Assembly (NCBI GenBank): GCA_964545885.1
Contig: CAZJHG010000005.1
Location: 1 to 53,617 of the forward strand
DNA: 53,617 nt
Direction of reading: 5' to 3'
Source: an uncultured Muribaculaceae bacterium
GTDB lineage: Bacteria > Bacillota_I > Bacilli_A > RF39 > UBA660
In this document: in pieces, positions 27,374 to 48,291 of the stretch
How positions within the stretch are numbered: the stretch's first letter is position 1
Layout: each line of letters starts with the position of its first letter
Translations under genes and position numbers: made by a program
Notes under the pieces: model-generated
Told to the model about the DNA's origin: nothing
Database searches by the model: none
Seen by the model: the letters and a program-made list of their open reading frames with translations, nothing else

Positions 27374-27703
27374 ATGGCAGGTAATGCAGGAACTGGTGGT
27401 TCTTTCGTTTTTGAAGCTGATTCAGACAAATTGGAAGAAATTGCTAGTGCTATGAAGAAAAAAATAGAAAGTGCAAAGGGATTTAGAGATTCTATTGCCA
27501 ATACCATAACTACTTTGTCTACAGATGGTTCATGGTCAGGTGATGCAAGTGAACTTTTTGTCGAAAAAACAAATTCTTATAAAGATGAATTCGAAGAAAT
27601 GACTAAGTGTTTAGAAACATATGTTGAGGTTATAAAAGATGTTTCAGGATCTATTGATAGATTAAATGAAGAAATAAAAATTATTTGCGGAAGGTTGGAT
27701 TAA
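27374..27703 (+). CDS. WXG100-family T7SS substrate
   Basis: Start ATG 27374 (GAGGTG RBS). About 109 aa helix-turn-helix with central DGSWSGDAS. Confidence 0.85.
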   Translation: MAGNAGTGGSFVFEADSDKLEEIASAMKKKIESAKGFRDSIANTITTLSTDGSWSGDASELFVEKTNSYKDEFEEMTKCLETYVEVIKDVSGSIDRLNEEIKIICGRLD

Positions 27704-27704
27704 T

Positions 27705-28028
27705 ATGGGAAATCTTGGATATAATGAATCATTAGATGGTCATATTGCAAATATAGATAGTCTTTCTACAGAATTTTTAGGTGTTTTAAACGATATAAAT
27801 GGAATTGTTGGAGAATCTATAAATATTTCTGGTGGAGCTATTTATGGTGATGCGGCGGCTAGGTTAGAACAAGTATGGGACGAAAAATGCGGTTCTTTTA
27901 AAGAATATTATAATTTATACCAAAATTTTGTTTCTCAACTAACACAAATTAGTAATGCAAATAAAGAAGCACAAGCAGAAGCTGATTCTATTTATGTGGA
28001 AGCAGCTGAGACAGCAGATAATGCTTAG
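27705..28028 (+). CDS. WXG100-like protein, IYG variant
   Basis: 107 aa helical hairpin with central GGAIYGDAAARLEQVW...F..YY..YQ.F. Confidence 0.7.
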   Translation: MGNLGYNESLDGHIANIDSLSTEFLGVLNDINGIVGESINISGGAIYGDAAARLEQVWDEKCGSFKEYYNLYQNFVSQLTQISNANKEAQAEADSIYVEAAETADNA

Positions 28029-28044
28029 AAAGGATTGATTTTTA

Positions 28045-28260
28045 ATGGCAGCAATGAGAAGTCAAGTTTCACAATTGACAGAATATAGAGATGAACTAGT
28101 TAATATATCAAACAAACTAAATTCTTCTTTGATTTATAACACTGAGAATTCAGTAGCAGCTCTTTATGAAGAATTAAAGAAGTTTATTACTATATTAAAC
28201 AATAATATAACAAATATACAACAAAATGCATCTGCTATAGATAGTAATAAGAAATGGTGA
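28045..28260 (+). CDS. small helical-hairpin protein (putative Lap-type T7SS partner)
   Basis: 71 aa, two amphipathic helices, directly upstream of a large substrate-like gene. Confidence 0.55.
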   Translation: MAAMRSQVSQLTEYRDELVNISNKLNSSLIYNTENSVAALYEELKKFITILNNNITNIQQNASAIDSNKKW

Positions 28261-28264
28261 TAGT

Positions 28265-30622
28265 ATGTCAAGAATAAAAGTAGATAAAAATGAATTATCG
28301 TCAATAATTAGTCAACTAAAAAATACAAGAGATGGTTTATCTAGTGCATTATCAAGTGCGGTTTCTTCAGTACCTAAAAAAGTTGATTTATCGAGGTTTC
28401 CTTTCACATATACCGATAGGGTAAAAGAAACTGTATGGGATGAGGAAGAGTCTAAATATGTTGATAAATTTAAAACAGTTACTAGACATAGATATCAAAA
28501 TGAAGGAAGAAGATTTAATTCAGCTATCTCTAATATTAATCCACAATTACAGAATGTAACTAATGGTTTGAAATATTTAGATAATGTAATAAATGCGCTT
28601 AGTGAAATTCAAAGTGCAGTAAATGAATTTGAAGAGACAGATTATACTGGAAGGTTGGCGGCTTTTAGTTTTGATTTTAATTGGAAAAATCCAGGAGCTA
28701 CTCCAGCAATTGATTCGTTAGATAAAGATACTATTACGACTATTGCATTAGAAAATGGCTGGATAGAAACAGAAGAAGATTTCGATGAAGAAGATTACTA
28801 TAATTTATTGTCTTATTTAATGAATATTGTTGGTGTTGATAAATTTGAAGATTTAACTACGACTGAAGATATTCTTGCTAGTTTAGAGAATTTCTTTGAT
28901 GATGAAGATGGTGATGATGAATCTCCTGATGAGGAAGGAAAACCAGAGGATGGTGAAACATCTGAAGAGGGTGAAGAATCTGAAGGTGATGATGAAAAAT
29001 CTGAAGAAGATTCTGAATCAGAAGATGGTTCTGAAGAAGGAGAAGATACTGGAGAAGAAGAATCTGAATCTAGTGAAAGTGAATTAGGCGACAGTGAAGA
29101 AGATGGTGCTCCTAAGAATGAAGATGAAAAAGGTAATGTCGGTGAAAAAGGACAACCAGAAATAAAAGAAAATAAACCTTCGCCGGAAATTAATGATAAA
29201 ATTGTAACAAAAACCAATACTGTTGCTGATGCCGGAGAAAGAAAACAGGAAAAATCTCCTACAAATCAGCCTAGTTCAGGTGGCCAAAATGTTTATCATT
29301 CATCAGAAGATAAAAAGCAGCATAATGAAGAGAATGCTGTTAAGCATAATAATTATGAATCTATTTCTCAATCACATGTTGAGAAAAAAGAAGAAAATTT
29401 CGATAATAAACATAACGAAAATGTTCGACCTAAAGATGAATTTGATGCTTCAATTATGGATAAAGAAAATGTTGATGGTAAAATAGAAGCTTCTGATAAT
29501 ATTCCTAAGAATGATGTAAAAGCTGATGTAGGAATTAAGGATGTACTAAATAATAATGAGTCTAGTAATAATTCTAAGGATGATAATGTAGATTTACCAA
29601 AGATTAAGGATGATTTTAATAGAATTGATTCTTCAAATGGTACTGATAATTCTATAACAGATGATACTGGTGATGATAAAGTTGTTTCATCAGCTGTAGC
29701 TGGTGCTATAGGAATTGGTTCATTAATTGGTGGAAATACAGATGTTCCGACTATTTTACCAGGGTCTTCTGATCCGGTAGTAGGTGATTTTAACTATAAT
29801 AATTTACTTAATACAGAAACAATAACACCAAATGGTTCTGGTACTTATCCAAATAATAATATTGATAATAGTACTATTTATGGTAGTAATAATAACAACA
29901 ATAGTAACAATTATGACAATAACAATAAATATGATAATTATAATAATGTTGCTAATAAGTCTTCGAATTCTAATGAAGGAGTACTTGGTAAAGGTAAATC
30001 AAATTCAAATGGTTCTTCTATAAATAAAGAGAATGAAACAAATAATGTATCAGAAGGCTCAGTTCAATCTGGGACTCTAGGTGAAGCTTCTTATGTTGAA
30101 ATGTTAGCTAAAGAAGAGAAAAAATATAAAATTGCTACTGCAACATCAATATCTGCATCTTTATTGATGTTAGGATTTAAGTATATTGGAGTTATTGGAT
30201 GGTTAACTTTATTATTACTAATTGCGGCTATTATATTAGTTTATACAACTTATAGAGCTAGACATAAAAAGAAGAAAAAGAAACTTGAAGCTTTAATTAG
30301 AATAGAAAGAGAAAAATCTATATTTGAACGTGAGAAAGAAAAACATATGTCTTTAGAAGAAGCTGCTAGTGCTGAGGTAGTTGAAGAGACTTCTAGTGAA
30401 GCAGAAGAAACTTCAGAAAATATTCAATCAGAAGATATTCAAGAAGAAATAACTGAAAATAATGACATTCCAAAAGAAGAAGTTCAAGTACAAGAAATTG
30501 AACAAAATCTTCCAATACTTCCAGAGCAAAAAGAATTTCAAATGGCTGAAGAAGTTATTTACGGAGAAATGCCTCAAAAAAATCCTGAAATTGAAGTAAA
30601 TGAAGAGAATGTTGAAAATTAG
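28265..30622 (+). CDS. large acidic protein: LXG/WXG-like N-terminus, D/E/N-rich stalk, C-terminal TM hairpin
   Basis: N-terminal helices ending in FEETD (FxxxD); long D/E/S/N low-complexity middle; IATATSISASLLMLGF-IGVIGWLTLLLLIAAIILVY then RARHKKKKKK and an acidic tail. No Sec signal. Confidence 0.7.
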   Translation: MSRIKVDKNELSSIISQLKNTRDGLSSALSSAVSSVPKKVDLSRFPFTYTDRVKETVWDEEESKYVDKFKTVTRHRYQNEGRRFNSAISNINPQLQNVTNGLKYLDNVINALSEIQSAVNEFEETDYTGRLAAFSFDFNWKNPGATPAIDSLDKDTITTIALENGWIETEEDFDEEDYYNLLSYLMNIVGVDKFEDLTTTEDILASLENFFDDEDGDDESPDEEGKPEDGETSEEGEESEGDDEKSEEDSESEDGSEEGEDTGEEESESSESELGDSEEDGAPKNEDEKGNVGEKGQPEIKENKPSPEINDKIVTKTNTVADAGERKQEKSPTNQPSSGGQNVYHSSEDKKQHNEENAVKHNNYESISQSHVEKKEENFDNKHNENVRPKDEFDASIMDKENVDGKIEASDNIPKNDVKADVGIKDVLNNNESSNNSKDDNVDLPKIKDDFNRIDSSNGTDNSITDDTGDDKVVSSAVAGAIGIGSLIGGNTDVPTILPGSSDPVVGDFNYNNLLNTETITPNGSGTYPNNNIDNSTIYGSNNNNNSNNYDNNNKYDNYNNVANKSSNSNEGVLGKGKSNSNGSSINKENETNNVSEGSVQSGTLGEASYVEMLAKEEKKYKIATATSISASLLMLGFKYIGVIGWLTLLLLIAAIILVYTTYRARHKKKKKKLEALIRIEREKSIFEREKEKHMSLEEAASAEVVEETSSEAEETSENIQSEDIQEEITENNDIPKEEVQVQEIEQNLPILPEQKEFQMAEEVIYGEMPQKNPEIEVNEENVEN

Positions 30623-30649
30623 GATTTCCTAAAAAAGGAAGTCCTTTTT
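30621..30649 (+). terminator. terminator closing T7SS cassette 1
   Basis: AGGATTTCCT/AGGAAGTCCT stem followed by a T-run. Confidence 0.75.
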
Positions 30650-30650
30650 A

Positions 30651-30679
30651 TTGTAATTAATAAATATTTAAGTTATAAT
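30651..30679 (+). promoter_or_regulatory. sigma-A promoter of essC
   Basis: TTGTAA-N17-TATAAT. Confidence 0.6.
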
Positions 30680-30708
30680 TTTATATAGAATATGGGAGTG
30701 TGGCAGGT

Positions 30709-33700
30709 ATGAAAATAATGTTAATGGATGCAACCAAATTAGTTAATTTAATTTTACCTAAAGAAGTGTTTGGTAACTATTGGATTGTTAATGCCAACAA
30801 AGATAATTTAGTTAGTGTACAAGCCATTGATAATAGTTGGGTTTTAAAAAGCAATAGTGAAGTAAAGGTATTTAGAAATGGTACAGCTGTTGATGAAGCG
30901 TTGATGGAAAGCGAGAAATTTTATACCTTAAAAAATATTTTAACTGGTGAAAGCTATGTTGTTTATACTTGCCCGGTATATGATGAAAATTCTCTTCAAT
31001 TAAGACTTAATTATAACGTTAAAGCAAATGGTTCATCTTGGTATATAGGAAATAATGGATCACAGGATAATGCTTCTAATTTTCCTAATGTTATATCTTA
31101 TGAGCAACCTGGTATTGCTAGAAACCAATTAAAAATTGTTTTTAGTGATGAAAAATATGCTGTTTATAATTTAAATACTTCATTACCAATGTATGTTAAT
31201 GGAATTCCTTGTGAGGCTTCTGAATTAAGAAATGGCGACAATATATTTATGTTAGGATTTAAGTTATCTATAATTAATGATATCTTTTATGTAAATAATC
31301 CTAATAAGTTAGTAAAATTTGATTCTCAAGTATTTGCAATAAGACAACTTCCTACTTTGGATTACACTAAGATATCTAGTGAAGCGGATCCTGTTATAGA
31401 GATGTATAAAAAAGAAGATTATTTTTTAAAGCCGCCAAGATTCGATGAAAAAATTGAAGAAAAAGTTTTAGTAATCGATCCACCTCCAGCAGCTCAAAAT
31501 CAAGAAGAGATGCCAGCTATATTTACGATGGGTTCTATGATGATGATGGGTATGAGCTCTGTAATGTCTGGAATTATAACTCTTACAAATGTACTTAATG
31601 GAACTACAGAACTTAGTACTGCATGGTCATCTTTACTAACTGCAGCTGCTATGCTTACTTGTATGTTGATACTTCCTACTTGTAGTAAAATGTATAATAA
31701 ACATAAAAAGAGAATGTATGAAAGAAAAAGACAAGCAACCTATAGTATGTATGTTAATAAGAAACGTGAAGAATTCTTAACAGAAATGAAAAAAGAACAA
31801 CAAATTCTTATTGATAAATATATTCCTTTAAAAGATGTTGGAGATATAATACTTTATAAAAAACGTAATTTATGGGAGAAAAATACAAGTGATTATGATT
31901 TCTTATCATTGAGATTAGGTATTGGTTCTATTCCACCATTTTTTAAGATAAATTATCCAGACGAGCATTTTTCAATGGAAGATGAAGATAATTTGATGGG
32001 ATATTTAAGAGAACTTGAAAAAGAAACAAGTATGCTTGAAAATGTTCCAGTTACATATTCTTTTGTTGATAAATATATTACTGCTGTAATAGGTCAAAGA
32101 AATGTTACTAATCCTTTCTTAAGAGGATTACTATTACAGATATTTGCTTATCACGGATATGATTCATTAAAAGTTTGTGTTTTTACTAATAAAGAAAATG
32201 CAAAGTTTTGGGAAGATGTTAAAGATTGTCCTTATTTCTGGAATGATCAAAGAACATTAAGATTTTTTGGTACTAATAGTGATGAAATTAACCAGATTAG
32301 TTCTTATTTTGAAGAAATGTTAAGTTCTTTAAAGGAAGCTAACGAGGATAGAGGTAATTCTACTTCTAAAGAACCGTTAAAACTTAGTACTAGGTATTTG
32401 ATTATAACTGATGATATTGATTTGGTTAGAAATGTTAGTTTAATTCGTTCTTTAATTGAATCAGAGAGTTATATTGGTATGAGTTTAATTATATTTACTG
32501 AGAAATTAAATTCTTTACCTAATGAAGTTGAACATTTTATTAGTGTAGATGAACGTTCTGGTGGAGTATTTGAACGAGTTCTTACTGGTAGTAAAAGAAT
32601 TAATTTTGTACCTGATTTTATGTTTGGTTCTCTTGATAAATATGCATATGTTGTTTCTAATATTCCAATAGCCTTAAATGGTGGTAAATTCCAATTACCT
32701 GGTTCATATTCTTTCTTGGAAATGTATAATGTTTCTAATGTTAACCAATTGAATGCTCTTTCTAGATGGAAGGAAAGTGATCCTATTAACTCTCTTTCTG
32801 CACCAATAGGAATTAATGAATATGGAGATTTGTTTAAGTTGGATTTACATGAAAAGTCACATGGACCACATGGTTTAATTGCTGGTATGACTGGTTCTGG
32901 TAAGTCAGAATTTATTATTACTTTCATATTAAGTACTGCTCTTAATTACCATCCTTATGAAGTACAGTTTGTATTAATTGACTATAAAGGTGGTGGTTTA
33001 GCTGGTGCTTTTGAAAATAGAGAAACTGGTCTTAAATTACCACATTTAGCTGGTACAATAACAAACTTAGATGTATCAGAGATTAATCGTTCTTTGGCTT
33101 CTTTACAATCTGAGTTAAAAAGAAGACAAGCTATATTCAATAAAGCTAGAGATAAAGTTGGAGAATCAACTATAGATATATATAAATATCAGAGATTGTA
33201 TAGAAATGGTCAAGTTGATAGTCCTGTCGCACACTTATTTATTGTTTCAGATGAGTTTGCGGAGTTGAAAGCACAACAACCTGATTTCATGAACGAACTT
33301 ATTTCAACTGCACGTATCGGACGTTCATTGGGTGTTCACTTAATTTTGGCAACACAAAAGCCAAGTGGTGTAGTTAATGATCAAATTTGGTCAAACTCTA
33401 AATTTAAAGTATGTTTAAAAGTTCAAGATAGGTCAGATAGTCAAGAAATGATAAAAAGACCTGATGCTGCTTCTTTAAAAGAAACTGGAAGATTCTACTT
33501 ACAAGTTGGTTATGATGAATACTTTGCTTTAGGTCAGTCAGCTTGGACAGGAGCTCCTTACTATGAATCTGATGTAAGAAAGAAAAAAGTTGATAATACT
33601 ATAACTTTTGTTGATAATTTAGGAATGCCTTTTAAAATTGTTGATGATGGTAAACAAAATTTTACTGGTGTATTAAAGGGTGAAGAGTTGCCAAATATAA

Positions 33701-35367
33701 TGAAATATTTAGTTGATATAGCTAAAAAAGAAAACATTAATATTAAACAACTATGGTTAAATTCTTTGGCTCCTGTAATATTTATAGATGGTTTAAAAGA
33801 AAAATATAGTTATAAAAAAATCGATTGTGATATTAACCCAGTAGTTGGTGAGTATGATGCTCCAAATTTACAAAAACAAGGATTACTTACTTTACCGATT
33901 ACCCAAGGTGGTAACTGGATAATCTATGGTATGGCAGATAGTGGTAAAGAAGAAATGATTAACTCTTTAGTTTATTCATGTATTACTACATATTCACCTT
34001 TAGAGTTAAATATGTATTTGTTAGATTTTGGTGCTGAAACTCTTAAGATGTATAGAAAAGCTCCTCAAGTTGGTGATGTCATTTTACAAAATGATGTTGA
34101 TAAAGTTACTAACTTATGGAGAATGCTTCAAGAAAAGATTGCTAGTCGTAAAAAAATGTTTGCTGATTATGGTGGAGATTATATTTCTTATTCTAAAGCA
34201 ACAGGTAAAGTATTACCAAATGTTGTAGTTATAATTAATGGTTTTGAACTATATAATGAAAACTATGGAGATGCTACATTTGATTTACTGGCAACTATAA
34301 CTCGTGATTGTCAGAAATATGGTGTTTATTTTGTAATGACTTCTAATACTGCTAATGGTATTAGATCAAGGCTTGCTCAATACTTACCAAATCATCTAGT
34401 ATTCCAAATGAATGATAAATATGATTATAGTTCACTTCTTGGAAGAACGAAGTTAGAGCCTTCCGATATATCTGGTAGAGGTTTGGCAAAACTTGATGCT
34501 ATTTATGAATTTCAAGCAGCTGTGCCTACTGAGAAAGAAAACTTAAATACAATGGTTTTAGAAAAGATTAAAACTTTATGTGAAAAATATCCTAATGGTG
34601 CTCCGAAAGTACCTGTGTTACCTGAAGTTGTTACTATAGCTGATGTTGCTGATTCTGTAAAAGGTCTTGCTTCTGTACCAGTTGGTATAGAAAAAGAATC
34701 TTTGAAAGTAAGATGTTTAGACGTTACAAAGAGTCTTGTTCATGTTATTACAGGAATGGAATTTGGCGAAATAAAGACATTTGGTGGTATGTTTATTAAA
34801 GAAATTTCTAATATTGTAGGTAAGAATTGTTACGTATTTGACTTAGAAAAATTATATAAAGATTATTCTTCTAATGTATCTTATTATGATACAAATATTT
34901 TAGAAGAATTTAAAACGTTTGGTAAATTTGTTTTTGATTCATTTACTAAATTTAAAGAAGCTGGTTTTGATGCTAGTGCATTAAAGGATCAAGGAGAGTA
35001 TGTTTGCTTTATAGTTGGTATTGAAAAATTCAAAAATATCTTAGGCTCTGAATTTGAAGGTGCTTATGGTGGGTTATTGACTATGATTAAGTCGATGCCA
35101 AAATTCCATTTTATTTTAATCGATACATGTGATAACTTTAAAAAGCGTGAATTTGATTCATGGTATAAAGATACTATATCTGGTACTAAGGGATTATGGA
35201 TTGGTAATGGAATGGGTACTCAATATACTCTTAAATCAACATTATCAACTAGAGTATTAGGGGCTAAGGTCGATAAGAATTTCGGTTATTATGTAGATGG
35301 AAACACAACTGTTTTAGTTAAATATATTTCTGAAGTTGGTGAGGAAGAAGTTTATGAAACTTTATAA
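30709..35367 (+). CDS. essC: type VII secretion ATPase EssC/YukB
   Basis: Likely start ATG 30709. Two N-terminal FHA-like domains (LPKEVFGNYW; MYVNG...LRNGDNIF), two TM segments, DLHEKSHGPHGLIAGMTGSGKSE, DYKGGG, SDEFAELK, RIGRSLGVHLILATQKP. D2 (GMADSGKE) and D3 are degenerate. Confidence 0.95.
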   Translation: MKIMLMDATKLVNLILPKEVFGNYWIVNANKDNLVSVQAIDNSWVLKSNSEVKVFRNGTAVDEALMESEKFYTLKNILTGESYVVYTCPVYDENSLQLRLNYNVKANGSSWYIGNNGSQDNASNFPNVISYEQPGIARNQLKIVFSDEKYAVYNLNTSLPMYVNGIPCEASELRNGDNIFMLGFKLSIINDIFYVNNPNKLVKFDSQVFAIRQLPTLDYTKISSEADPVIEMYKKEDYFLKPPRFDEKIEEKVLVIDPPPAAQNQEEMPAIFTMGSMMMMGMSSVMSGIITLTNVLNGTTELSTAWSSLLTAAAMLTCMLILPTCSKMYNKHKKRMYERKRQATYSMYVNKKREEFLTEMKKEQQILIDKYIPLKDVGDIILYKKRNLWEKNTSDYDFLSLRLGIGSIPPFFKINYPDEHFSMEDEDNLMGYLRELEKETSMLENVPVTYSFVDKYITAVIGQRNVTNPFLRGLLLQIFAYHGYDSLKVCVFTNKENAKFWEDVKDCPYFWNDQRTLRFFGTNSDEINQISSYFEEMLSSLKEANEDRGNSTSKEPLKLSTRYLIITDDIDLVRNVSLIRSLIESESYIGMSLIIFTEKLNSLPNEVEHFISVDERSGGVFERVLTGSKRINFVPDFMFGSLDKYAYVVSNIPIALNGGKFQLPGSYSFLEMYNVSNVNQLNALSRWKESDPINSLSAPIGINEYGDLFKLDLHEKSHGPHGLIAGMTGSGKSEFIITFILSTALNYHPYEVQFVLIDYKGGGLAGAFENRETGLKLPHLAGTITNLDVSEINRSLASLQSELKRRQAIFNKARDKVGESTIDIYKYQRLYRNGQVDSPVAHLFIVSDEFAELKAQQPDFMNELISTARIGRSLGVHLILATQKPSGVVNDQIWSNSKFKVCLKVQDRSDSQEMIKRPDAASLKETGRFYLQVGYDEYFALGQSAWTGAPYYESDVRKKKVDNTITFVDNLGMPFKIVDDGKQNFTGVLKGEELPNIMKYLVDIAKKENINIKQLWLNSLAPVIFIDGLKEKYSYKKIDCDINPVVGEYDAPNLQKQGLLTLPITQGGNWIIYGMADSGKEEMINSLVYSCITTYSPLELNMYLLDFGAETLKMYRKAPQVGDVILQNDVDKVTNLWRMLQEKIASRKKMFADYGGDYISYSKATGKVLPNVVVIINGFELYNENYGDATFDLLATITRDCQKYGVYFVMTSNTANGIRSRLAQYLPNHLVFQMNDKYDYSSLLGRTKLEPSDISGRGLAKLDAIYEFQAAVPTEKENLNTMVLEKIKTLCEKYPNGAPKVPVLPEVVTIADVADSVKGLASVPVGIEKESLKVRCLDVTKSLVHVITGMEFGEIKTFGGMFIKEISNIVGKNCYVFDLEKLYKDYSSNVSYYDTNILEEFKTFGKFVFDSFTKFKEAGFDASALKDQGEYVCFIVGIEKFKNILGSEFEGAYGGLLTMIKSMPKFHFILIDTCDNFKKREFDSWYKDTISGTKGLWIGNGMGTQYTLKSTLSTRVLGAKVDKNFGYYVDGNTTVLVKYISEVGEEEVYETL

Positions 35368-35370
35368 TTG

Positions 35371-35403
35371 AGAAAAGATGACTTTTGTTATCTTTTCTTT
35401 TTT
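35371..35403 (+). terminator. essC terminator
   Basis: AGAAAAGATGAC/GTTATCTTTTCT stem followed by a T-run. Confidence 0.75.
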
Positions 35404-35410
35404 AGTTTCG

Positions 35411-35439
35411 TTGACTTTGAATTTGAATTAGAGTATTAT
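35411..35439 (+). promoter_or_regulatory. sigma-A promoter of the esaB-WXG-WXG unit
   Basis: TTGACT-N17-TATTAT. Confidence 0.6.
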
Positions 35440-35444
35440 GTTTA

Positions 35445-35509
35445 TATAAGGGTATAGTGAGTAGTTAAGGGGAATTGGTCGGAAATGGTAATGCTATCAT
35501 ATATTCTTA
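35445..35509 (+). promoter_or_regulatory. putative structured 5' leader, copy 1
   Basis: TAAGGGTATA (35447-35456) pairs with TATATTCTTA (35500-35509) over 10 bp including two G-U pairs. The motif is shared with 41462-41534. Confidence 0.45.
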
Positions 35510-35539
35510 AATCTACTATTTTTAATAGGAGGGTTTATT

Positions 35540-35797: not shown

Positions 35798-35807
35798 GAG
35801 GTGGATT

Positions 35808-36107: not shown

Positions 36108-36147
36108 TATTTATCTATGATTATTTAGTGAAAGGAATGAATAAGAA

Positions 36148-36456: not shown

Positions 36457-36464
36457 TAAATAAG

Positions 36465-36485
36465 TACTGCGTTAATGACGCAGTA
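36465..36485 (+). terminator. terminator after the esaB-WXG pair
   Basis: TACTGCGT-TAATG-ACGCAGTA. Confidence 0.7.
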
Positions 36486-36548
36486 TATTATAAGTAAAAG
36501 AAAATATTCTTTTATTTATAATATACTTGGAGTACTGGAGGGATAGGT

Positions 36549-36848: not shown

Positions 36849-36866
36849 TGGAAGGATTGATTTTTT

Positions 36867-38393: not shown

Positions 38394-38654
38394 GTGATAG
38401 AAATGGCTATGGTTTATGATAACGGAGAGAAAGTAGTAAGTGAATTGAATTCTTTATCTGTTAGTTTGAATGGCTTAAAGTCTGTTTGTGGGGATAATCT
38501 ATTATTTATGGACAATGATAATTGGGCAAAAGTTAAGGAATACATAGAAAAGATGCAAGTAGAAATAAAAGACATTAGTGGTGAATTAAAAAGTATTCTA
38601 AATGAAATGAAAGTTATCAGCAAAGAAGTTGAAGAAGTAAAAGATAGGAGTTGA
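38394..38654 (+). CDS. small helical-hairpin protein (putative Lap-type partner)
   Basis: 86 aa, two amphipathic helices around GDNLLFMDNDNW; stops 4 nt before the next large gene. Confidence 0.55.
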   Translation: MIEMAMVYDNGEKVVSELNSLSVSLNGLKSVCGDNLLFMDNDNWAKVKEYIEKMQVEIKDISGELKSILNEMKVISKEVEEVKDRS

Positions 38655-40965: not shown

Positions 40966-40983
40966 AATAATAGGAGGATTGAA

Positions 40984-41388
40984 ATGAAAGAAAAGTATTT
41001 ACCAATTGGAACAGTAGTTTTATTAAAAGGTGGAAGAAAAAGAGCTATGATTACTGGTTTCTGTTCTGTAGCTCAAGAAAATCAAGAAAAAATATATGAT
41101 TATAGTGGTTGTGTATATCCTGAAGGATATTTGAGTTCTAATCAAGTTTGTTTATTTGACCATGACCAGATTGAAAAAATATTCTTTTTAGGATATGAAG
41201 ATGAAGAAGAAAAGGCCTTTAAAGATAAACTAAATAAAATAGTTGCTTCTATTGAAGGTGGAGATAATTCTTCAGCTTCTGTTTCAAACGAAAGCATGGT
41301 TGATGAAAGTACTGGTACTGTTGCTTCTAATAATGTTGATGAAGAAACGGCTTCTTCTGGTACTTTTACGCCTTTTGCTAGTAATTAA
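40984..41388 (+). CDS. DUF4176 family T7SS accessory protein
   Basis: KYLPIGTVVLLKGG.K..MITG...YDYSGC.YPEG...CLFDH.QI.KI.F.GY. Confidence 0.92.
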   Translation: MKEKYLPIGTVVLLKGGRKRAMITGFCSVAQENQEKIYDYSGCVYPEGYLSSNQVCLFDHDQIEKIFFLGYEDEEEKAFKDKLNKIVASIEGGDNSSASVSNESMVDESTGTVASNNVDEETASSGTFTPFASN

Positions 41389-41461
41389 TTGATTTGGGTT
41401 GTTAATTTTTATTTATTTAAAAATTTAATGACAATAAAAAAAAATGATGTTATAATCATTG

Positions 41462-41534
41462 TTATAAGGGTATGATAATTGTTTAGGGGTGTTTGGAATA
41501 ATCAAGCATGTTTCTTTGATTTATATTCTTATAA
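41462..41534 (+). promoter_or_regulatory. putative structured 5' leader, copy 2
   Basis: Begins 5-6 nt after TG-T-TATAAT (41451-41456). TTATAAGGGTATGA pairs with TTATATTCTTATAA (41521-41534); inner stem AGGGG-TGTTTG / CAAGCA-TTTCT. Confidence 0.45.
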
Positions 41535-41556
41535 TAAATATTATGGAGGTGAAAAT

Positions 41557-41853
41557 ATGGCAAGTTCATTAATTATCGATACTGATTTAGTTAACACTTC
41601 TGGTAGTGGTATTAACGCTAGTGGTGTAAATTTCCAAAACGAAGTAGCAAGTTTTAAATCTCACGTTAGTGCAATTTTATCTATTTGGACTGGTGCTGAT
41701 GCTGATGAATTTGGGACTGTTGCTGAAGATGTAGCAGCTTTACTTGATAAAGCTTCTATTACTGTACAAGAAGTTGGTGAACATCTTGTTAACACAGCAA
41801 CTGCTATGGATCAAACAGTTGAAGAAAACAAAGGCAGAATGTCTGCTGTATAA
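41557..41853 (+). CDS. WXG100-family T7SS substrate
   Basis: True start ATG 41557 (GGAGGTG RBS). 98 aa with central ILSIWTGADADEF. Confidence 0.88.
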   Translation: MASSLIIDTDLVNTSGSGINASGVNFQNEVASFKSHVSAILSIWTGADADEFGTVAEDVAALLDKASITVQEVGEHLVNTATAMDQTVEENKGRMSAV

Positions 41854-41883
41854 GAATGAATATAAGAAAGGAAAGTGATTTCA

Positions 41884-42177
41884 ATGGCAGTTAATACTTT
41901 AGATTATGAATCATATAAAAGTGAGCATTCAGCTATTAATACATGCATCAATAATATTGAAGCTGAGTTGAATACTGCAAATACAAAATTAAATGAAGCT
42001 ACTGCTGATGCTTCAGGTCAATGGGCTTCTACTGATGTTGATGAATGGAATCAAATTTATAAAGATATAAACAGTAAGTTCGAAAGACTTCAAGCTTTAA
42101 TGCAAGCATCAGGAGTATCTGCAGAAGCTACACAAGCTACTGAAAGTGCTTATAGTGGTTTTACTACTTCTGCATAA
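41884..42177 (+). CDS. WXG100-like protein, WAS variant
   Basis: Start ATG 41884. 97 aa helical hairpin with central ASGQWASTDVDEW. Confidence 0.7.
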   Translation: MAVNTLDYESYKSEHSAINTCINNIEAELNTANTKLNEATADASGQWASTDVDEWNQIYKDINSKFERLQALMQASGVSAEATQATESAYSGFTTSA

Positions 42178-42212
42178 TTTTATGTACTACATTAAGTAGT
42201 ACATTGTAAATT
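42176..42212 (+). terminator. hairpin / terminator after the second WXG pair
   Basis: ATGTACTAC-ATTAA-GTAGTACAT core with outer AATTT/AAATT pairing. Confidence 0.55.
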
Positions 42213-42262
42213 ACTAAACACTTAGTGATTTACAATGGATTATTTAAAAAGGTGGTGTTTAT

Positions 42263-43219
42263 ATGGGCTGGGATTTTACAGCTGATAGCGATATACAAAA
42301 TAGCTTGGCTAGCAGTTTAGATACTGCAGCAGATAATTTTGATGAACGTGTTGATGCTTTGTATTCGGAAATTGATTCTATGGGCTCAAGTGGAAATTGG
42401 ATTGGAGAAGATTATGATGCTTTTAATACTGGTGTTCACGGATATGAAAGCGCTTTAGATGATTTGTCTGATGGAATTAGAATGTATGCAGAACATTTTA
42501 GAAAAATGTCCACCGGTACTGAAACTCTTGCTTCAGATTTAATTGCAATTGTTCAAAATTTGACTGGTACAGCAGGCGGTAGTAGTGGTACTGGCGGGTC
42601 CGGTGGTGGTACTGGTGGCGGAACTACCTCAGAAGGTGGAGATGGCTTAAACGCCATAAATGCCCCTGCTAATGATGGTCAGGGCTCTAGTGCTAATGGT
42701 GATAATAGTGTTGATGCAGTTGCTGAAACTGATGAACCGGGTTTCTGGGATAAATAGGGACAGAGATATGCCGATGATTGGGGCGAACTTTCGGGTTCAG
42801 TATCTGAACTTTGGTCTGGAGCTGATGGTTTATGGTCAGGTGTTGGTGCTGTAGTTGGCACTGTTGGAGAAGGTGCTTTATTTCTTGTGGATGGTGCTGT
42901 CGACACTCTTGAAACTGCTTCTGATATGATTGGTACTGGATGGAATTGGCTTTTAGATGCAGGTAATACAAGAGCTACTTCAGGAGGCTATGATTATTGG
43001 AGCACTGTTGGTGAAGATTTTGCTGAAAACTGGGATTTTTCAACTGCTGATAATTTTGCGGAAGGTGTTGGTGTAGCGCTTACAGGTACAGTTAGAACTG
43101 TGGTAGATGCTGCTCAACTTGTAGGAAATGTTGCTGTTGATGCAGTAGAAGTTGTAGGAGATGTTGCCGATACTGTTGTTGGTTGGGGGAAATCTCTTGT
43201 TAAATGGATATTTGATTAA
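42263..43219 (+). pseudogene. WXG100-domain putative effector interrupted by one in-frame TAG (42755-42757)
   Basis: N-terminal SGNWIGEDY domain and Gly/Thr linker. The frame stays open after the TAG (GQRYADDWGELSG...) and runs into ORF 42887-43219 in the same frame, giving 318 codons plus stop. Confidence 0.75.
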
Positions 43220-43239
43220 TATAGAAGGTGGTTGTTAAT

Positions 43240-43602
43240 ATGACAGAAAAAGATCGCAAGGTGCTTGGACTTGAAAGATGTGTTATTCTTCAGGCTATAG
43301 CTGAAAATTATTTGATTAGAACGAAAGGTAAGAAAATTTCTGATGAATATCCTGGATTAGAAGAAAAATATGGCGTTTTAGCTGATCAGCATATTCATTT
43401 GTTGAAGGAATTCCTTATGGATGAGTATAAAGCAAGAAATCTTGATTTGAATGAATGTATAGTGAAATCTGGTGAAAGTGTAATTCTTGAAGATAAATTA
43501 ACTGACTATGAGAAGAATGTTTTGATTAGGGAAGCTGATATTGTTTTGTTAACTTATTGCACTGTTGAAGATAGAAAAAAAGTATTTTTAAAAAATAAAT
43601 AG
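43240..43602 (+). CDS. small cytoplasmic hypothetical protein, candidate immunity factor
   Basis: Start ATG 43240 (GAAGGTGG RBS). Non-WXG protein directly after the putative effector; the function is positional inference only. Confidence 0.55.
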   Translation: MTEKDRKVLGLERCVILQAIAENYLIRTKGKKISDEYPGLEEKYGVLADQHIHLLKEFLMDEYKARNLDLNECIVKSGESVILEDKLTDYEKNVLIREADIVLLTYCTVEDRKKVFLKNK

Positions 43603-43620
43603 GTATTGGAGGTAAATAAT

Positions 43621-44940
43621 ATGGCTGATAGAACATTTAAATATGATGCCATTGCTGGTAGTTATCAAGAAATGAATAATATTAATAATGATATCGCTAC
43701 TATTTTAAGTGATATTAATCGAGAAGTAGAGAATAAGGTAAATGTGTGTGATGAAGCTATTTTTGGTGATTTAGGTAAGCAAATGTTACTCGATTGGGAT
43801 AATACATCTGCTAATTTTGATAGCTTCGTTAGTAAGTTTAATAATTGGTCTACCTTAGTTACTCAAGCCGCAGGTAATTATAGTCAGTTTGAATCAGATA
43901 TAAGTGGTTTTAAACAAGCTAATCCATTAGGTGTTACTAGTGGTGGAATTACTGATGCTTATACAAACACTGGTTTTTATTCTAATAGCTATTCCTTAGA
44001 TGAAATTAACCAATTATCTTCGTTGGCCCAATTTTATGAATTAACAGGTGCTACTTATGTTGATACTGGTATGGTATCTTTTGCTAAGAAAAATAAAATA
44101 TATAATATTGTAACTGATGGTCTTACTATAGTGTCTACTGCTTGTTCTGCCTTTGCTATATTTAAAGGTTTATCTGCTGCTTCCTCTACTGTAAGTGCTG
44201 CAAATAGTGCTGCTAGTGCTAGTGCAGAAACTGCTGCAAATTCAGCAGCGTTAAATTTAGCTAGTAAATCAGCTGGAGGTTTTGCATCAAGCAATTTAGC
44301 AAGAGCAGTTGGAGGAGGAAAAATTTTAAACTCTGGCTTTGTGTCTGGTTCTATTAAAGCCGCACAGAACGCTGCTATGACAGCTACTTGGTATGCAAAA
44401 TTTGCTGGTACGTATGCCGCTAATATTGCCAAAGGTACTATTGGTAGTTCCGCTTTTTGGAGTTCAGTTAATTCAGGCATTCAATCTGCTGGTTTGGCTA
44501 CTGGCGTAGTTGCTTCATCTTCTGGTGTGCTTTCTAGTATTGGTTATGCTATTGGTTCTAATTATGATCCTACTAAATATGCATCCGGTTATGAAAATTC
44601 CCTTATTGCTACGGGGACTTCTCTTACAATTGATAATCAAGATTATGTTTTTGTTGGATCAACTAGTAATGGTACTAATATATTTTCTAATGAAAATAAT
44701 GAAATATTCTATTATGGTGAAAATGGAATACAGCATGCTACAGTTACAAACTCTTCCGGTACTAACGTAAATGCTACTTTTGATAATATAGGTGGTCAAT
44801 TCCAATTGAATTTAGGTAATGAAGTAGTTACAGAAAATGATAGTTTGAATACTTCGTTTGATGTTACTTACGATGAATATTATGATTCAATTGCTAACGA
44901 TATTTCTACTCATCCAGATATTGTAGAAGAAAATAATTAG
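43621..44940 (+). CDS. putative T7SS effector with IFG-variant WXG-like N-terminal domain
   Basis: Start ATG 43621 (GGAGGT RBS). EAIFGDLGKQMLLDWDNTSANFDSFVSKFNNW, YSQFE (YxxxE), an Ala/Gly/Ser-rich hydrophobic core and a beta-rich C-terminus. Confidence 0.72.
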   Translation: MADRTFKYDAIAGSYQEMNNINNDIATILSDINREVENKVNVCDEAIFGDLGKQMLLDWDNTSANFDSFVSKFNNWSTLVTQAAGNYSQFESDISGFKQANPLGVTSGGITDAYTNTGFYSNSYSLDEINQLSSLAQFYELTGATYVDTGMVSFAKKNKIYNIVTDGLTIVSTACSAFAIFKGLSAASSTVSAANSAASASAETAANSAALNLASKSAGGFASSNLARAVGGGKILNSGFVSGSIKAAQNAAMTATWYAKFAGTYAANIAKGTIGSSAFWSSVNSGIQSAGLATGVVASSSGVLSSIGYAIGSNYDPTKYASGYENSLIATGTSLTIDNQDYVFVGSTSNGTNIFSNENNEIFYYGENGIQHATVTNSSGTNVNATFDNIGGQFQLNLGNEVVTENDSLNTSFDVTYDEYYDSIANDISTHPDIVEENN

Positions 44941-44956
44941 TTTAGGAGGAAAATAT

Positions 44957-45388
44957 ATGGGATATGTAACAAATAATGGTACCTATGTAGAGGATGATGG
45001 TACTACTACAAAAAAAACACTTTATTCTTGTAAACAAAAAGGGTTACAATATACTACTATTGGTGATGATATTAAATCTGACTTTGATTTTTTATTAAAA
45101 ACAGGTAGTATTGCTCAAAACTTGGATTCTATGTTAAAAGAGTTGAATATTGCTTCTAGTAATACTAGTGCTTTTCTCTTTGAAAATGGTAGCTCTGTTA
45201 ATTCTATTGATGAAGCTTATCAAGAAATTGAAACTGAAGTTGAAAAGTTAAAGGATTTATTACAGACTTTGCATGATGCTTTTATCACTGATATTGATAA
45301 TGTTAATGCTGAACTTGAAGTTAATTTTGGACATTGGATAGGAACAAAAGCTACTGCTGGTAGAACTGTTGTTACTGAAAATAAGTGA
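44957..45388 (+). CDS. helical hypothetical protein (putative Lap-type partner)
   Basis: 143 aa; two helices around SAFLFENG; directly upstream of a large substrate-like gene. Confidence 0.55.
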   Translation: MGYVTNNGTYVEDDGTTTKKTLYSCKQKGLQYTTIGDDIKSDFDFLLKTGSIAQNLDSMLKELNIASSNTSAFLFENGSSVNSIDEAYQEIETEVEKLKDLLQTLHDAFITDIDNVNAELEVNFGHWIGTKATAGRTVVTENK

Positions 45389-45403
45389 TAGGAGGTTATT
45401 TAT

Positions 45404-47539
45404 ATGGCAGTTGTAAAAATTAATAGTGCTGAACTTGAAGCTATTGAAGAACAAATTGTAAAAGCTAGAGAATATATAGATGATGCTGAGAGTGAATGGG
45501 GCGAAAATTTTGATAATTTGTATTATGCTTTTATAGAAAATGGTTTTTTAGATGATTTATACGAAGATGCAAAGAGTAATTATTATTCGTTAAAAAAATG
45601 GGGAAATGCTCTTTCGTGTACTGCTGGTGGAGCAATTCTTGGTTTGAATTTTGGACCTATTGGTGGAATTGTTGGTGCAGTTATTGGTGCAATTTTTGGT
45701 ATTACTATGGCAGTTATAACTGATCCTGTATGGCTAGAGTATTCTAAAGATGCTTTTATAAATTTACTTACTAATTGTTATTATGGTAATGATGATAGTT
45801 ATATTCAACTTGTTAATGTAGCGACGATGCTTTATAATTGTCAGGTATCTATGGAAAAAATTAAAACTTTAGTAAATGATTATCAGCAATTATATGCTAA
45901 TTTAAATGCTACTGCTGATGCTATGGGAGTAGTTACTACTTTAGCTAGTGATGGTACTACTGTTTTAAGTATTGATACTGAGGTAACAATTGATGGTCAA
46001 ACTGTTCAATTATCGACAAGTGAAGCTTTAAATGCTTTATATACTTATGAAAATGTTGTTATGTCTGCTGAATTTGAGGGTGAATATTTAGCTAGTTTGG
46101 GATATGAAGTTGATTTTAATTCAATTGTTTCAAACGCTAATTCATTTATGACAAGTACTATTTCTAGTGGATTATATTCTCATGAGTTTATTGAAGGAAT
46201 ATTACCTACTTATACTCCGGATTCTGATGCTGCTACTGATAATGTCGTTAATGCTTTAGAAATGGATGCTTCTGGTGTTCAATCATTACTAAATAGTGTA
46301 AGTAATTTAAATATTTTTCAAGGCTTGGGATTGGTTGGTGCTTCTATGCTAGCTGGTTCCGTTAGTAAACCTGCAGAAGATGATAATGGCTCTGATGGTG
46401 GAAATAACGGCGGAAATAACGGCGGAAATAACGGCGGAAATAACGGCGGAAATAATGGTGGGAATAATGGTGGAAATAACGGTGGAAATAACGGCGGAAA
46501 TAATGATAGCATCGATGATAAAGATGAAGAAGATAAAACTGTTGATATTAAGTTAACTGAATTGATTGAATTAGATATTCCTGATGCACTTGATGAATTA
46601 GCTATTGATGGTGAAGATATTGACGAGATGGCTAGAGAACTATTCTTTGAAAAGTATCAAGGTGCTGATTTGACTGCTCGTAGACAAGAAGATTATGATG
46701 CTTTTGAGTTATTATATAATAGAGATGATAAATCAGAATTAATTGCCTTATTTGAAGGTATTGGTTATGGTGCAGCTGAAGCTGTAGGACTTCTTACTGA
46801 TAAAGAAGTTGCTCTTCAAGCATATATTTTAAATTCTCAAAATAAAGAAATGTTAGAAATTGCAAATGGACTTGCAGCTGATTATGGAATAACAGATTTT
46901 AAATCTTCATATAGTGATGCTCCTGATTATCTTGATTTTGTTACTGGTGATGGACAGGCTGCATTGACTGATTATTCTAATAGTAAAGAAGTTGTAGAAG
47001 CTAAAACTGCTAGAAATGAAGCTAAAGAGGCTTATTCAAAAGCGGTTACTGATGCAAATGAATCTATTTCTAATGCTAATCAAGCTAAGAGTGATTTGGA
47101 AGCATTGAAAGCTGAAATTGAGAGTACTTCTGGTACTGATAGTTCTAAATGGACTGCAGAACAAGCTGAGAAATATAACGAGGCTGTTGATGCTTATAAT
47201 GAAGCTGTTCAAGAAGCTAATGATAAGATGGCTTTAGTTGATGAAGCTAAGGAAACTTATACTGAGGCTGTAGATTCTTATGAAGCTGCTAAAACTGAAT
47301 TTATTAATACTATAAAGAGACAAGTTCAAGAGGGTAATGGTTCTATTTTACCTGGTGAAGCTTTGATTGATTCTCCTGGTAGTTCATCTAATGGTGGTTC
47401 ATCTAGTGGTGGTTCTTCTAATGGAAACTCTTTTAGTGGTAGTACATTTGAGAGCTCTGATGCCTCAAGTGGTGACTCTAATAATGATACTAGTGATAGT
47501 GATTTAATTGGTGGCTTCTTGGATTTGGCTGGTAAATAA
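45404..47539 (+). CDS. large acidic putative T7SS substrate with a glycine zipper (paralog of 38659-40965)
   Basis: GGAILGLNFGPIGGIVGAVIGAIFG glycine zipper, (GGNN)9 linker, and a C-terminal domain closely matching that of 38659. Confidence 0.72.
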   Translation: MAVVKINSAELEAIEEQIVKAREYIDDAESEWGENFDNLYYAFIENGFLDDLYEDAKSNYYSLKKWGNALSCTAGGAILGLNFGPIGGIVGAVIGAIFGITMAVITDPVWLEYSKDAFINLLTNCYYGNDDSYIQLVNVATMLYNCQVSMEKIKTLVNDYQQLYANLNATADAMGVVTTLASDGTTVLSIDTEVTIDGQTVQLSTSEALNALYTYENVVMSAEFEGEYLASLGYEVDFNSIVSNANSFMTSTISSGLYSHEFIEGILPTYTPDSDAATDNVVNALEMDASGVQSLLNSVSNLNIFQGLGLVGASMLAGSVSKPAEDDNGSDGGNNGGNNGGNNGGNNGGNNGGNNGGNNGGNNGGNNDSIDDKDEEDKTVDIKLTELIELDIPDALDELAIDGEDIDEMARELFFEKYQGADLTARRQEDYDAFELLYNRDDKSELIALFEGIGYGAAEAVGLLTDKEVALQAYILNSQNKEMLEIANGLAADYGITDFKSSYSDAPDYLDFVTGDGQAALTDYSNSKEVVEAKTARNEAKEAYSKAVTDANESISNANQAKSDLEALKAEIESTSGTDSSKWTAEQAEKYNEAVDAYNEAVQEANDKMALVDEAKETYTEAVDSYEAAKTEFINTIKRQVQEGNGSILPGEALIDSPGSSSNGGSSSGGSSNGNSFSGSTFESSDASSGDSNNDTSDSDLIGGFLDLAGK
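46397..46504 (+). repeat. 12-bp coding tandem repeat x9 (GGNN)
   Basis: GG(C/T)GG(A/G)AATAA(C/T) repeated nine times over 108 bp. Confidence 0.95.
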
Positions 47540-47560
47540 TAAAATGGAGGGTTGTATAGT

Positions 47561-47998
47561 ATGGGAAAACTATTACCGATAGGTACAGTTGTTAGATTAA
47601 CAGATGGTAGCAAAAAGTTAATGGTTACAGGTTATTATTCAAAAGTACCTAATGAAAATAAAATATATACGTATAATGCTTGTGTTTTTCCTGAGGGATT
47701 TATGGAAAATACATTTTGCTTATTCGATGCAAACCAAATTGATGAGGTATTATATTTAGGTTTGGAAAATGATGATTTTAAACAATACCTTCAGAATCTT
47801 GATTCTAGATTCGATGTATCGTCCGGGGTTATTTCAGCTGATACTAGTATTGGTAGCTTAGGTGAAACTAAGAGAAGGGGACGTGTTCCAAAAGCTCCTA
47901 CTAAACCTTTATCTGCTTCTGAAATGCGTGCAAAATATGGGGTTAATAAAGTTTCTGGCAATCAATCTGAATCTGTAAACTCAAGTGATTTTGTTTAG
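47561..47998 (+). CDS. DUF4176 family protein with a basic C-terminal extension
   Basis: Start ATG 47561. LLPIGTVVRL.DG.KKLMVTGY...YTYNAC.FPEG...LFDA.QI.EV.YLG. Confidence 0.9.
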   Translation: MGKLLPIGTVVRLTDGSKKLMVTGYYSKVPNENKIYTYNACVFPEGFMENTFCLFDANQIDEVLYLGLENDDFKQYLQNLDSRFDVSSGVISADTSIGSLGETKRRGRVPKAPTKPLSASEMRAKYGVNKVSGNQSESVNSSDFV

Positions 47999-48009
47999 GA
48001 GTGGTTATG

Positions 48010-48291
48010 ATGAAAGAGAAATATTTACCAATTGGTACTGTCGTTCTTCTTGAAGGTGGTACTAAACAAGTTATGATAACAGGTTTTTGTGCTGTTGCTG
48101 ATTCTAAAAAAGATAAAATTTTTGATTATCGTGGTTGTCCTTTTCCTGAAGGAGTTATGGAGTCGGCTGGTGTAGCATTATTTGACCATAGTCAAATAAG
48201 AGAAATTTGTCATATAGGATTTGAAAATCCTGAATCAATTGACTTCTCAGATAGATTATTAATTATCGAAGAGAAACTTGCAAATAAATAA
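48010..48291 (+). CDS. DUF4176 family protein
   Basis: KYLPIGTVVLLEGG.K.VMITG...FDYRGCPFPEG...LFDH.QI. Confidence 0.92.
   Translation: MKEKYLPIGTVVLLEGGTKQVMITGFCAVADSKKDKIFDYRGCPFPEGVMESAGVALFDHSQIREICHIGFENPESIDFSDRLLIIEEKLANK

Follow-up and report, generated by a model that had tools for sequence, protein, structure and literature searches.

EssA, EssB and EsaA are regarded as essential membrane partners of EssC in models of the Gram-positive type VII secretion system (T7SS), and to our knowledge the passage of T7SS substrates across the membrane and the wall is still unresolved in the field. The locus analysed here lies on a contig of 53,617 nucleotides (CAZJHG010000005.1, assembly GCA_964545885.1; contig C5, the whole of which is called the window below) from a metagenome-assembled genome (MAG) of 1.54 Mb, with 66% completeness and about 28% guanine plus cytosine. 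The nearest named relatives are Candidatus Coprovivens and MAGs labelled as uncultured Bacilli or Tenericutes from animal and human guts, and all genomes compared were MAGs. Bordered by thrS (25487-27253) on one side and a UvrD-like helicase gene (48437-50488) on the other, the T7SS locus occupies about 21 kb (27356-48291, plus strand) and comprises 23 open reading frames (ORFs) with short gaps: essC, an EsaB-like gene, ten small helical genes, six larger cargo genes, one gene of 124 amino acids (aa) and three DUF4176 genes. Judged by their synteny, which is kept in about 20 other species-level genomes, these ORFs are genuine genes and not chance ORFs. The locus is a real, conserved and undescribed variant of the known T7SS. 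Genes are named below by their first coordinate.

The closest well-studied relative is T7SSb, represented by the Ess system of Staphylococcus aureus and the YukE/YukD/YukC/YukB/YueB/YueC system of Bacillus subtilis. Common to both are an EssC that combines an N-terminal FHA region with two membrane helices and three FtsK-like ATPase domains, WXG100 substrates, DUF4176 genes and, here only putatively ubiquitin-like, a small partner protein. It differs in having no detectable EssB, EsaA or EssA, in the position of its EssC on a long separate branch, and in an EsaB-like protein too diverged for the Pfam YukD model.

Other Bacillota subtypes, T7SSc to T7SSj, keep the WXG100 protein TsxA, the ubiquitin-like TsxB and the ATPase TsxC and have the other parts swapped (Garrett, Higginson and Palmer 2024, PMC11217815); the survey that described them drew on RefSeq, where uncultured genomes of the present group are unrepresented (PMC11217815). 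T7SSg is similarly simple, but its ATPase has no FHA domains (PMC11217815), whereas the window EssC has them. The additional components of these subtypes, namely the kinase TsxD, the PPM phosphatase TsxF, the DUF6382-FHA protein TsxJ, the Ig-rich TsxI, the EspG-like TsxG and the DUF5050 propeller TsgL, were not seen here, and none of the subtype markers, vWA included, occurred among the Pfam matches of 86 large proteins of related loci or as a conserved neighbour in 20 EssC loci of the same GTDB family. Because no published subtype marker is conserved beside these EssCs, the arrangement, by its component content, fits none of the T7SSc-j subtypes described from RefSeq.

As regards cargo, LXG toxins are bound at their disordered middle domain by DUF4176 (Ltc) chaperones, and an acidic disordered middle region followed by DUF4176 is a published trait of chaperone-dependent LXG toxins (PMC12478183). 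The S. aureus nuclease EsaD has EsxB, EsxC and EsxD as export partners, and an elongated, shaft-like pre-secretion complex has been proposed for it (PMC10653861).

EssC, the EsaB-like protein and the undetected membrane partners

The window EssC has the organisation of an EssC-type ATPase, with an FHA N-terminus, membrane helices and three FtsK/SpoIIIE domains, and a profile made from its residues 1-250 matches FHA domains, including that of the EssC structure 5fwh. It scores 971.8 bits against TIGR03928, the NCBI equivalog model for T7SSb EssC (cut-off 778.4), and far lower against the actinobacterial EccC models, while its top match in PDB is YukB of B. subtilis (9qks, 426 bits). The EsaB-like gene adjoins EssC in 18 of 20 family loci (19 genera) and is the sole gene so consistently linked to it. 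Its product gave no match in the Pfam YukD search or in a PDB sequence search with its profile; when that profile (51 homologues) was aligned by hhalign to the EsaB of canonical loci in the same class, the probability was 80.8% (expectation value, E, 1.3e-5) over the full length, and the protein appears to be a remote homologue of canonical EsaB. With the profile, 653 relatives were found among 5.8 billion proteins; the 120 matches listed were all unannotated and gave no help in assigning the family.

The membrane partners were sought in six-frame translations with PF10140 for EssB, TIGR03929 for the EsaA N-terminus and PF10661 for EssA. The searches extended to 27 genomes of the genus (14 listed as at least 90% complete, one in 7 contigs) and to 61 genera of the same GTDB family (49 at least 90% complete), 21 of which have an EssC over the cut-off. 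Nothing over the cut-off was obtained for EssB in the source genome, the genus or the family, for EsaA in the source genome or the family, or for EssA in the 61-genus search, which included the source genome and in which sensitivity is limited for such a small, poorly conserved protein. The EssB model can detect EssB in this group, because canonical loci were found with it in the same class: it recovered seven genomes of this class in a 399-genome sample of the phylum, most of them with the canonical order esxA-esaA-essA-esaB-essB-essC. No further conserved neighbour of EssC, be it a membrane protein, a kinase, a phosphatase or a subtype marker, was found in the 20 family loci.

An unrooted maximum-likelihood tree of 41 EssCs separates the 37 EssB-less sequences from the four EssB-linked ones by a branch of about 2.3 substitutions per site, with 100% support in the Shimodaira-Hasegawa-like approximate likelihood ratio test. 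The tree shows, for the sequences sampled, a distinct lineage, not a placement outside T7SSb. An original prediction, made from the letters of the window alone, had proposed a divergent T7SS arrangement, and this is borne out by the separate, fully supported EssC branch, the undetected EssB, EsaA and EssA, and cargo outside the LXG families. On the related question of whether EssC falls inside the canonical T7SSb clades the outcome is divided, since the tree puts it apart from the four EssB-linked EssCs, yet it passed TIGR03928.

In some relatives a gene of 400-530 aa replaces the upstream cargo block between thrS and essC (L007:8689-9918, L009:8668-9873, L019:4226-5821). It was considered as an EssB substitute and rejected as a thioester-domain protein; two of the three tested carry the thioester domain TED_2, typical of covalent adhesins. 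A wall-less host as the cause of EsaA loss was also rejected, given MurG-, MurB- and FtsQ-like genes (translations only) beside the second EssC locus of the source genome and YceG in a relative.

This second locus, on contig C2 (9112-18144), encodes an EssC of 1543 aa, 38% identical to the first, with an EsaB-like gene; EssB and EsaA partners were not found beside it. It further contains six small helical genes on the opposite strand, two with W-x-G, and a 589-aa lipoprotein-like protein carrying an HExxH-like motif, and it adjoins the MurG-, MurB- and FtsQ-like genes mentioned above. An EssC with an EsaB-like gene is also present in L029 (CAZWXX010000021.1), which is labelled 'uncultured Muribaculaceae' (Bacteroidota). 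Its EssC branches beside that of the 'Tenericutes' MAG L030 with a path length of about 0.15, and the label is probably a binning or labelling error.

Cargo blocks, protein classes and a toxin-immunity-like module

Three classes of helical proteins emerged when local profiles were iterated over every ORF in the fetched loci and combined with BLAST. Class A (WXG-type) comprises 27356, 36549, 41479 and the N-terminus of 42263, class B (partner-type, in which the Trp/Gly signature is displaced) comprises 27705, 35808, 36148, 41875 and the N-termini of 36867 and 43606, and class C (71-86 aa) comprises 28045 and 38394, with the 143-aa 44957 in the equivalent position. The large proteins had been predicted to have similar N-terminal helical domains, a claim that the profiles contradict: they split these domains into WXG-type (42263), partner-type (36867, 43606) and the three long hairpins of 28265, 38659 and 45404, which fall outside the classes. 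The WXG100 model PF06013 (cut-off 27.3 bits) was passed by 27356 and 36549, while class B has no W-x-G in register and its WXG100 membership is by fold only, according to the modelled hairpin of 36867. Searches of every window protein against Pfam and NCBIfam returned WXG100, DUF4176 and FtsK only, and no YukD, Lap, LXG or toxin domain. For 150 small proteins, DUF3130 and DUF3958 (Lap1/Lap2) were not among the 25 most-matched of 49 Pfam families or among the NCBIfam matches. In related loci, seven small proteins match the PPE model of mycobacteria, with a best E of 5e-7, and five match EspC, all weakly.

The core block, kept in about 20 related species, has the order EssC, EsaB-like, two small A/B genes, A, B-long, C, large protein and DUF4176. 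An optional second block consists of A, B2, A-long, sometimes an immunity-like gene, B2-long, C2, large protein and two DUF4176 genes, and an optional upstream block, found in the nearest relatives only, of A, B, C and a membrane-anchored large protein. The window looks expanded, holding all three blocks together, and the 'greatly expanded' locus of the original prediction is so in a relative sense only, as a duplicate of one conserved cargo block plus the upstream block. A C or C2 gene, or an unlabelled ORF of 77-79 aa, lies just 5' of nearly every large gene, the exception being the second copy in L013, and a DUF4176 gene lies 3' of every complete large gene. The length of B-long ranges from 137 to 816 aa, and its C-terminal part is therefore an optional passenger. 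In L018 a B-long of 660 aa (14828-16810) separates essC from the EsaB-like gene, and another B-long occupies the usual place; here the cargo block is locally duplicated or rearranged.

Across the relatives, identity is 69-90% for EssC, 65-94% for the EsaB-like protein and 67-87% for the DUF4176 protein beside 38659, compared with 24-57% for the small helical and large proteins; the large neighbour of DUF4176 gene 40984 is itself only 24-38% identical. By this measure DUF4176 evolves like the machine and not like the cargo, which fits a retained cytoplasmic role. All three DUF4176 genes of the locus exceed the PF13780 cut-off of 25 bits. An orphan fourth one, of 111 aa and 53% identical to 40984, lies on contig C11 (20909-21244), away from both EssC loci.

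The conserved large protein 38659 was modelled with AlphaFold at an overall pLDDT (predicted local distance difference test) of 66.5, with a long N-terminal hairpin, low-confidence or disordered parts at residues 281-304 and in the acidic linker 336-411, and an all-helical C-terminal domain at 412-676 (pLDDT 84-95). This domain is the best conserved part of the family and has 176 clusters among 1.84 billion representatives, all of them unannotated and mostly of the same architecture. Foldseek matches of the model to BAR domains, Borrelia PF12 and colicin shafts were rejected as non-specific (generic long helices, E above 0.1), and a PDB sequence search gave nothing useful. Hydropathy indicates neither a signal peptide nor a strongly hydrophobic segment. 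The family is conserved over its full length, its C-terminus is not polymorphic and there is no immunity-like gene behind it. Every sufficiently long related locus with an EssC at least 70% identical contains a member (L002, L011, L015 and L035 are truncated), and the family was not found by BLAST at E 1e-4 in 20 more distant EssB-less loci that keep only EssC and EsaB. A scan of 55 relatives found no LXG and no recurring toxin domain. The paralogue 45404 shares 51% identity with 38659 across 267 C-terminal residues and has weak glycine-zipper matches. The 28265 protein, whose homologues are restricted to the nearest relatives (L001, L016, L017), has weak YwqH-like, DUF5344 and WXG100 hints at its N-terminus and, by hydropathy, hydrophobic segments at residues 472-491, 626-644 and 645-666, with a C-terminal membrane hairpin.

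In the B-long protein 36867 (pLDDT 63.8), the hairpin at residues 45-123 superimposes on EsxB of Bacillus anthracis (4j41/4j10) with a template modelling score of 0.74-0.81 and a probability of 0.99. Its well-predicted beta-rich domain (264-447) found no match in PDB with Foldseek and has 11 homologues among the 5.8 billion proteins. The N-termini of 38659, 45404 and 28265 gave no match to LXG (PF04740) even at E 10; LXG was also absent from the 86 large proteins of related loci, and the 38659-family alignment has no conserved Leu-x-Gly column. The statement in the original prediction that no catalytic domain is recognisable stands for the window proteins, the 86 related large proteins, the 55 relatives and the two models compared with PDB. 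From composition and hydropathy, membrane activity of 45404, 43606 and 28265 is plausible.

The second block contains a module of a different kind. The A-long frame 42263-43219 has 318 codons, but one TAG at 42755-42757 divides it into the ORFs 42263-42757 and 42887-43219; in L014 and L016 its homologues are intact and 321-426 aa long. Of 20 A-long proteins in the fetched loci, the three that are complete and have a C-terminal domain of the 42887-43219 type are in every case followed by a 43228-43602 homologue (3 of 3, and the window in addition), against 0 of 16 without this domain; the remaining one matches the domain in part and runs off the end of its locus. This distribution shows that, in these genomes, 42263-43219 and 43228-43602 co-vary in the way that a polymorphic toxin gene and its immunity gene would. 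The putative toxin of the window is truncated past its WXG domain and linker, with the candidate immunity gene retained. The LXG-style pattern of a polymorphic C-terminus with a downstream immunity gene is thus seen in this pair and not in the 38659 family. Homologues of 43228 also lie directly 5' of distant EssCs (L022:5491-5865, L057:12637-13011); a matching toxin gene was not found in the fetched part of these loci, and the two may be orphan immunity genes.

With the LXG/Lap1/Lap2/Ltc systems, such as Streptococcus intermedius TelA and TelB (PMC10801868, PMC12478183), the cargo units share small helical genes 5' of a large hairpin protein, a disordered middle and an adjacent DUF4176. However, the large protein of the window has no LXG, DUF3130 or DUF3958 match, its C-terminal domain is conserved instead of polymorphic and no immunity gene comes after it; the DUF4176 gene lies 3' of the large gene and belongs to a small size class, and two of the helpers carry C-terminal domains of their own. 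EsaD (PMC10653861) has the same layout of three small helical genes 5' of one large substrate, but a nuclease domain, an EsaG-type immunity gene and an EsaE/EspG-type chaperone are absent from the window, and the likeness observed is one of layout. The EsxA/EsxB and PE/PPE heterodimers of T7SSa also consist of two neighbouring hairpin classes, one or both with C-terminal extensions; here, however, PPE and EspC matches are weak, the machinery is of the Bacillota type (FHA EssC, EsaB-like), and EccB, EccD, EccE and MycP are missing. Similarity to the glycine-zipper toxins TspA and TelE (PMC10434224) extends to a GxxxG-rich segment in 45404 and Gly/Ala/Val-rich amphipathic regions in 43606 and 42887, which would suit insertion into a membrane. 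This likeness is by composition; the zipper of 45404 lies inside the N-terminal hairpin region and not at the C-terminus, and there is no DUF443-type immunity gene. Overall, the A-B-C-large-DUF4176 unit looks like the logic of EsaD and LXG export built from different families.

Proposed export scheme and competing explanations

The locus probably encodes a working type VII secretion system that is reduced and specific to its lineage. Its machine would consist of the FHA-bearing EssC, as the only integral membrane component, and the diverged EsaB/YukD-like protein, without EssB, EsaA and EssA. The cargo would be organised in repeated blocks, each running from A and B hairpins and the small helical C protein through a large acidic protein to one or two DUF4176 chaperone genes. 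By analogy with EsaD and its partners EsxB/C/D, and with LXG toxins and their Lap1/Lap2 factors, the A, B and C proteins may bundle with the large protein's long N-terminal hairpin, forming an elongated helical pre-secretion complex recognised by EssC, and DUF4176, as in LXG systems, may stay in the cytoplasm, where it would keep hold of the amphipathic or disordered middle region before export. The B proteins, and in the second block also A, would bear variable C-terminal passengers, so that several effector domains could leave together in one complex. Among the passengers, at least 42263-43219 would be an antibacterial-type toxin, stop-truncated here, with 43228-43602 as its cognate immunity gene. 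The proteins 38659, 45404 and the hydrophobic 43606 and 28265 would most likely act at the membrane or the cell surface and not as enzymes. Complex formation, the chaperone role, export and the targets are inferred in this scheme from gene order and fold. The cargo had been predicted to be structural or adhesive, or membrane-active. The lack of an enzyme fold mildly favours this, but it is not established, since none of the folds or domains points to a function and one module resembles a toxin; nor are the acidic disordered regions evidence for stalks or fibres, because they are known in chaperone-dependent LXG toxins (PMC12478183).

Several points weigh against this account. The EssC tree is unrooted and its EssB-linked references are only four; the source genome is incomplete, although near-complete relatives of the genus and family give the same result. 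There may be analogues of EssB, EsaA or EssA too diverged for the hidden Markov models, or non-homologous replacements encoded elsewhere. The N-termini of the large proteins match neither LXG nor each other, and their status as substrates rests on context. Finally, both AlphaFold models are modest overall (pLDDT 64-67).

The main rival reads the 38659 family, and perhaps 28265, as secreted or envelope parts of the apparatus that replace EsaA and EssB as a conduit or wall-spanning element, with DUF4176 as an assembly chaperone. The full-length conservation of the family, its non-polymorphic C-terminus and the lack of a following immunity-like gene agree with such a role, as do its constant presence, always with a highly conserved DUF4176, beside EssCs at least 70% identical, its long helical domains with acidic linkers, and the C-terminal membrane hairpin of 28265. 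However, a conduit would have to be built from a protein without signal peptide or strongly hydrophobic segment, undetected by BLAST in the 20 distant EssB-less loci and duplicated as 45404 in an accessory block, and 28265 is confined to the nearest relatives; this reading is considered unlikely. An ordinary T7SSb whose essB, esaA and essA escaped notice through MAG incompleteness or divergence beyond the hidden Markov models is more doubtful still. It could appeal to the TIGR03928 score of EssC, the 66% completeness of the genome and the small, poorly conserved EssA, but it conflicts with the results for EssB in the 61 family genera and 27 genus genomes and for EsaA and EssA in the family, with the success of the same EssB model on canonical loci in seven genomes of the class, with the housekeeping genes that bound the locus, with the lack of a conserved membrane protein beside EssC in the 20 family loci, and with the separate EssC clade. 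The least probable explanation, to which hardly any weight is given, takes the locus for what is left of a T7SS island that is decaying and no longer functions. The reduced core and the stop codon inside one cargo gene speak for it, but all other ORFs are intact, including that of the 1555-aa EssC, order and content are kept in about 20 species at 70-90% EssC identity, and the genome has a second intact EssC-EsaB locus.

A further-reaching version of the favoured account, a reduced but working T7SS, is offered tentatively, as a possibility with somewhat less than even prospects. EssC and the ubiquitin-like protein might form a self-sufficient translocon across this lineage of small-genome gut Bacilli, with EssC as the sole membrane part exporting bundles of A, B, C and large proteins with passenger-bearing helpers, and with DUF4176 as a machine-proximal adaptor and not a toxin-specific chaperone. 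The locus may point to a T7SS machine simpler than current models assume. A naturally reduced system, if true, would be a minimal machine for reconstitution and imaging, conserved in many species that still make peptidoglycan, as indicated by the MurG- and MurB-like genes beside the second locus. The conserved grammar, in which targeting-factor-like hairpins carry effector domains of their own, and several protein families without annotation in public databases would both widen the substrate repertoire known for T7SS in abundant uncultured gut bacteria.

Gene inventory and minor features

The coordinates of the locus are listed in Table 1. The inventory given in the original prediction (essC, esaB, ten small, six large and three DUF4176 genes on a single strand) is present between thrS and the UvrD-like helicase gene. 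All the genes counted there exist, and the 124-aa gene 43228, which was left unclassed there, is added; a correction is that 42263-42757 and 42887-43219 are one TAG-broken frame, and the first gene may begin at 27356 instead of the locus start of 27374 given earlier.

Table 1. Features of the T7SS locus in the window
Feature	Position	Strand	Basis
Class A WXG100 protein, 115 aa, upstream block	27356..27703	+	Pfam 28.1 bits; local profile
Class B, partner-type, 107 aa	27705..28028	+	Local profile; sub-threshold TIGR03930, E 9e-4
Class C, 71 aa, just before large gene	28045..28260	+	38394 profile; position
Acidic low-complexity protein, 785 aa, N-terminal helical region	28265..30622	+	Hydropathy
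Terminator-like hairpin, between 28265-30622 gene and essC	30621..30645	+	Pattern scan only
EssC, membrane FtsK/SpoIIIE ATPase, N-terminal FHA region, 1555 aa	30700..35367	+	TIGR03928
Terminator-like hairpin, 3' of essC	35370..35399	+	Pattern scan only
EsaB/YukD-like protein, 85 aa	35540..35797	+	EssC linkage; hhalign
Class B, 99 aa	35808..36107	+	Profile; gene order
Class B, 102 aa	36148..36456	+	Profile; gene order; weak WXG100, WXG100_2 matches
Class A WXG100, 99 aa	36549..36848	+	Pfam 32.2 bits; TIGR03930 E 1e-9
B-long, class B hairpin (39-146) and beta-rich C-domain (~264-447), 463 aa	36867..38258	+	Profile; model
Class C, 86 aa, just before large gene	38394..38654	+	Profile; order
Conserved large acidic protein, 768 aa	38659..40965	+	Family alignment; AlphaFold model
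DUF4176 (Ltc-type chaperone family), 134 aa	40984..41388	+	PF13780 98.7 bits
Class A small protein, probable ATG start 41557	41479..41853	+	Sub-threshold WXG100 23.3 bits; TIGR03930 E 3e-6; local profile
Class B2, 100 aa	41875..42177	+	Profile links to 43606 N-terminus
A-long: WXG-type N-terminus, Gly-rich linker, amphipathic Gly/Val/Trp-rich C-domain	42263..43219	+	One frame
Candidate immunity protein, 124 aa	43228..43602	+	Co-occurrence with A-long C-domain
B2-long, class B hairpin 7-113, Ala/Ser/Gly-rich hydrophobic region, beta-rich tail, 444 aa	43606..44940	+	Profile; hydropathy
Class C2, 143 aa, just before large gene	44957..45388	+	Profile; order
38659 paralogue, 711 aa, glycine-zipper segment residues 75-112	45404..47539	+	BLAST; hydropathy
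DUF4176, 148 aa	47552..47998	+	PF13780 74.1 bits
DUF4176, 96 aa	48001..48291	+	PF13780 82.2 bits

An altered genetic code (TGA as Trp, or TAG read-through) was considered, since relatives are labelled 'Tenericutes', and rejected: long ORFs are intact under table 11 with TAG and TGA as ordinary stops, and TAG terminates 15 of the 45 ORFs in the window. The bracketing of essC by terminator-like hairpins suggests that it is monocistronic and that the locus has several transcription units. Pattern scans alone also indicate a terminator-like hairpin at 42202-42237, after the 41875-42177 gene, and a strong promoter-like site at 41428-41456 ahead of 41479, with an 11/12 match and an extended -10.

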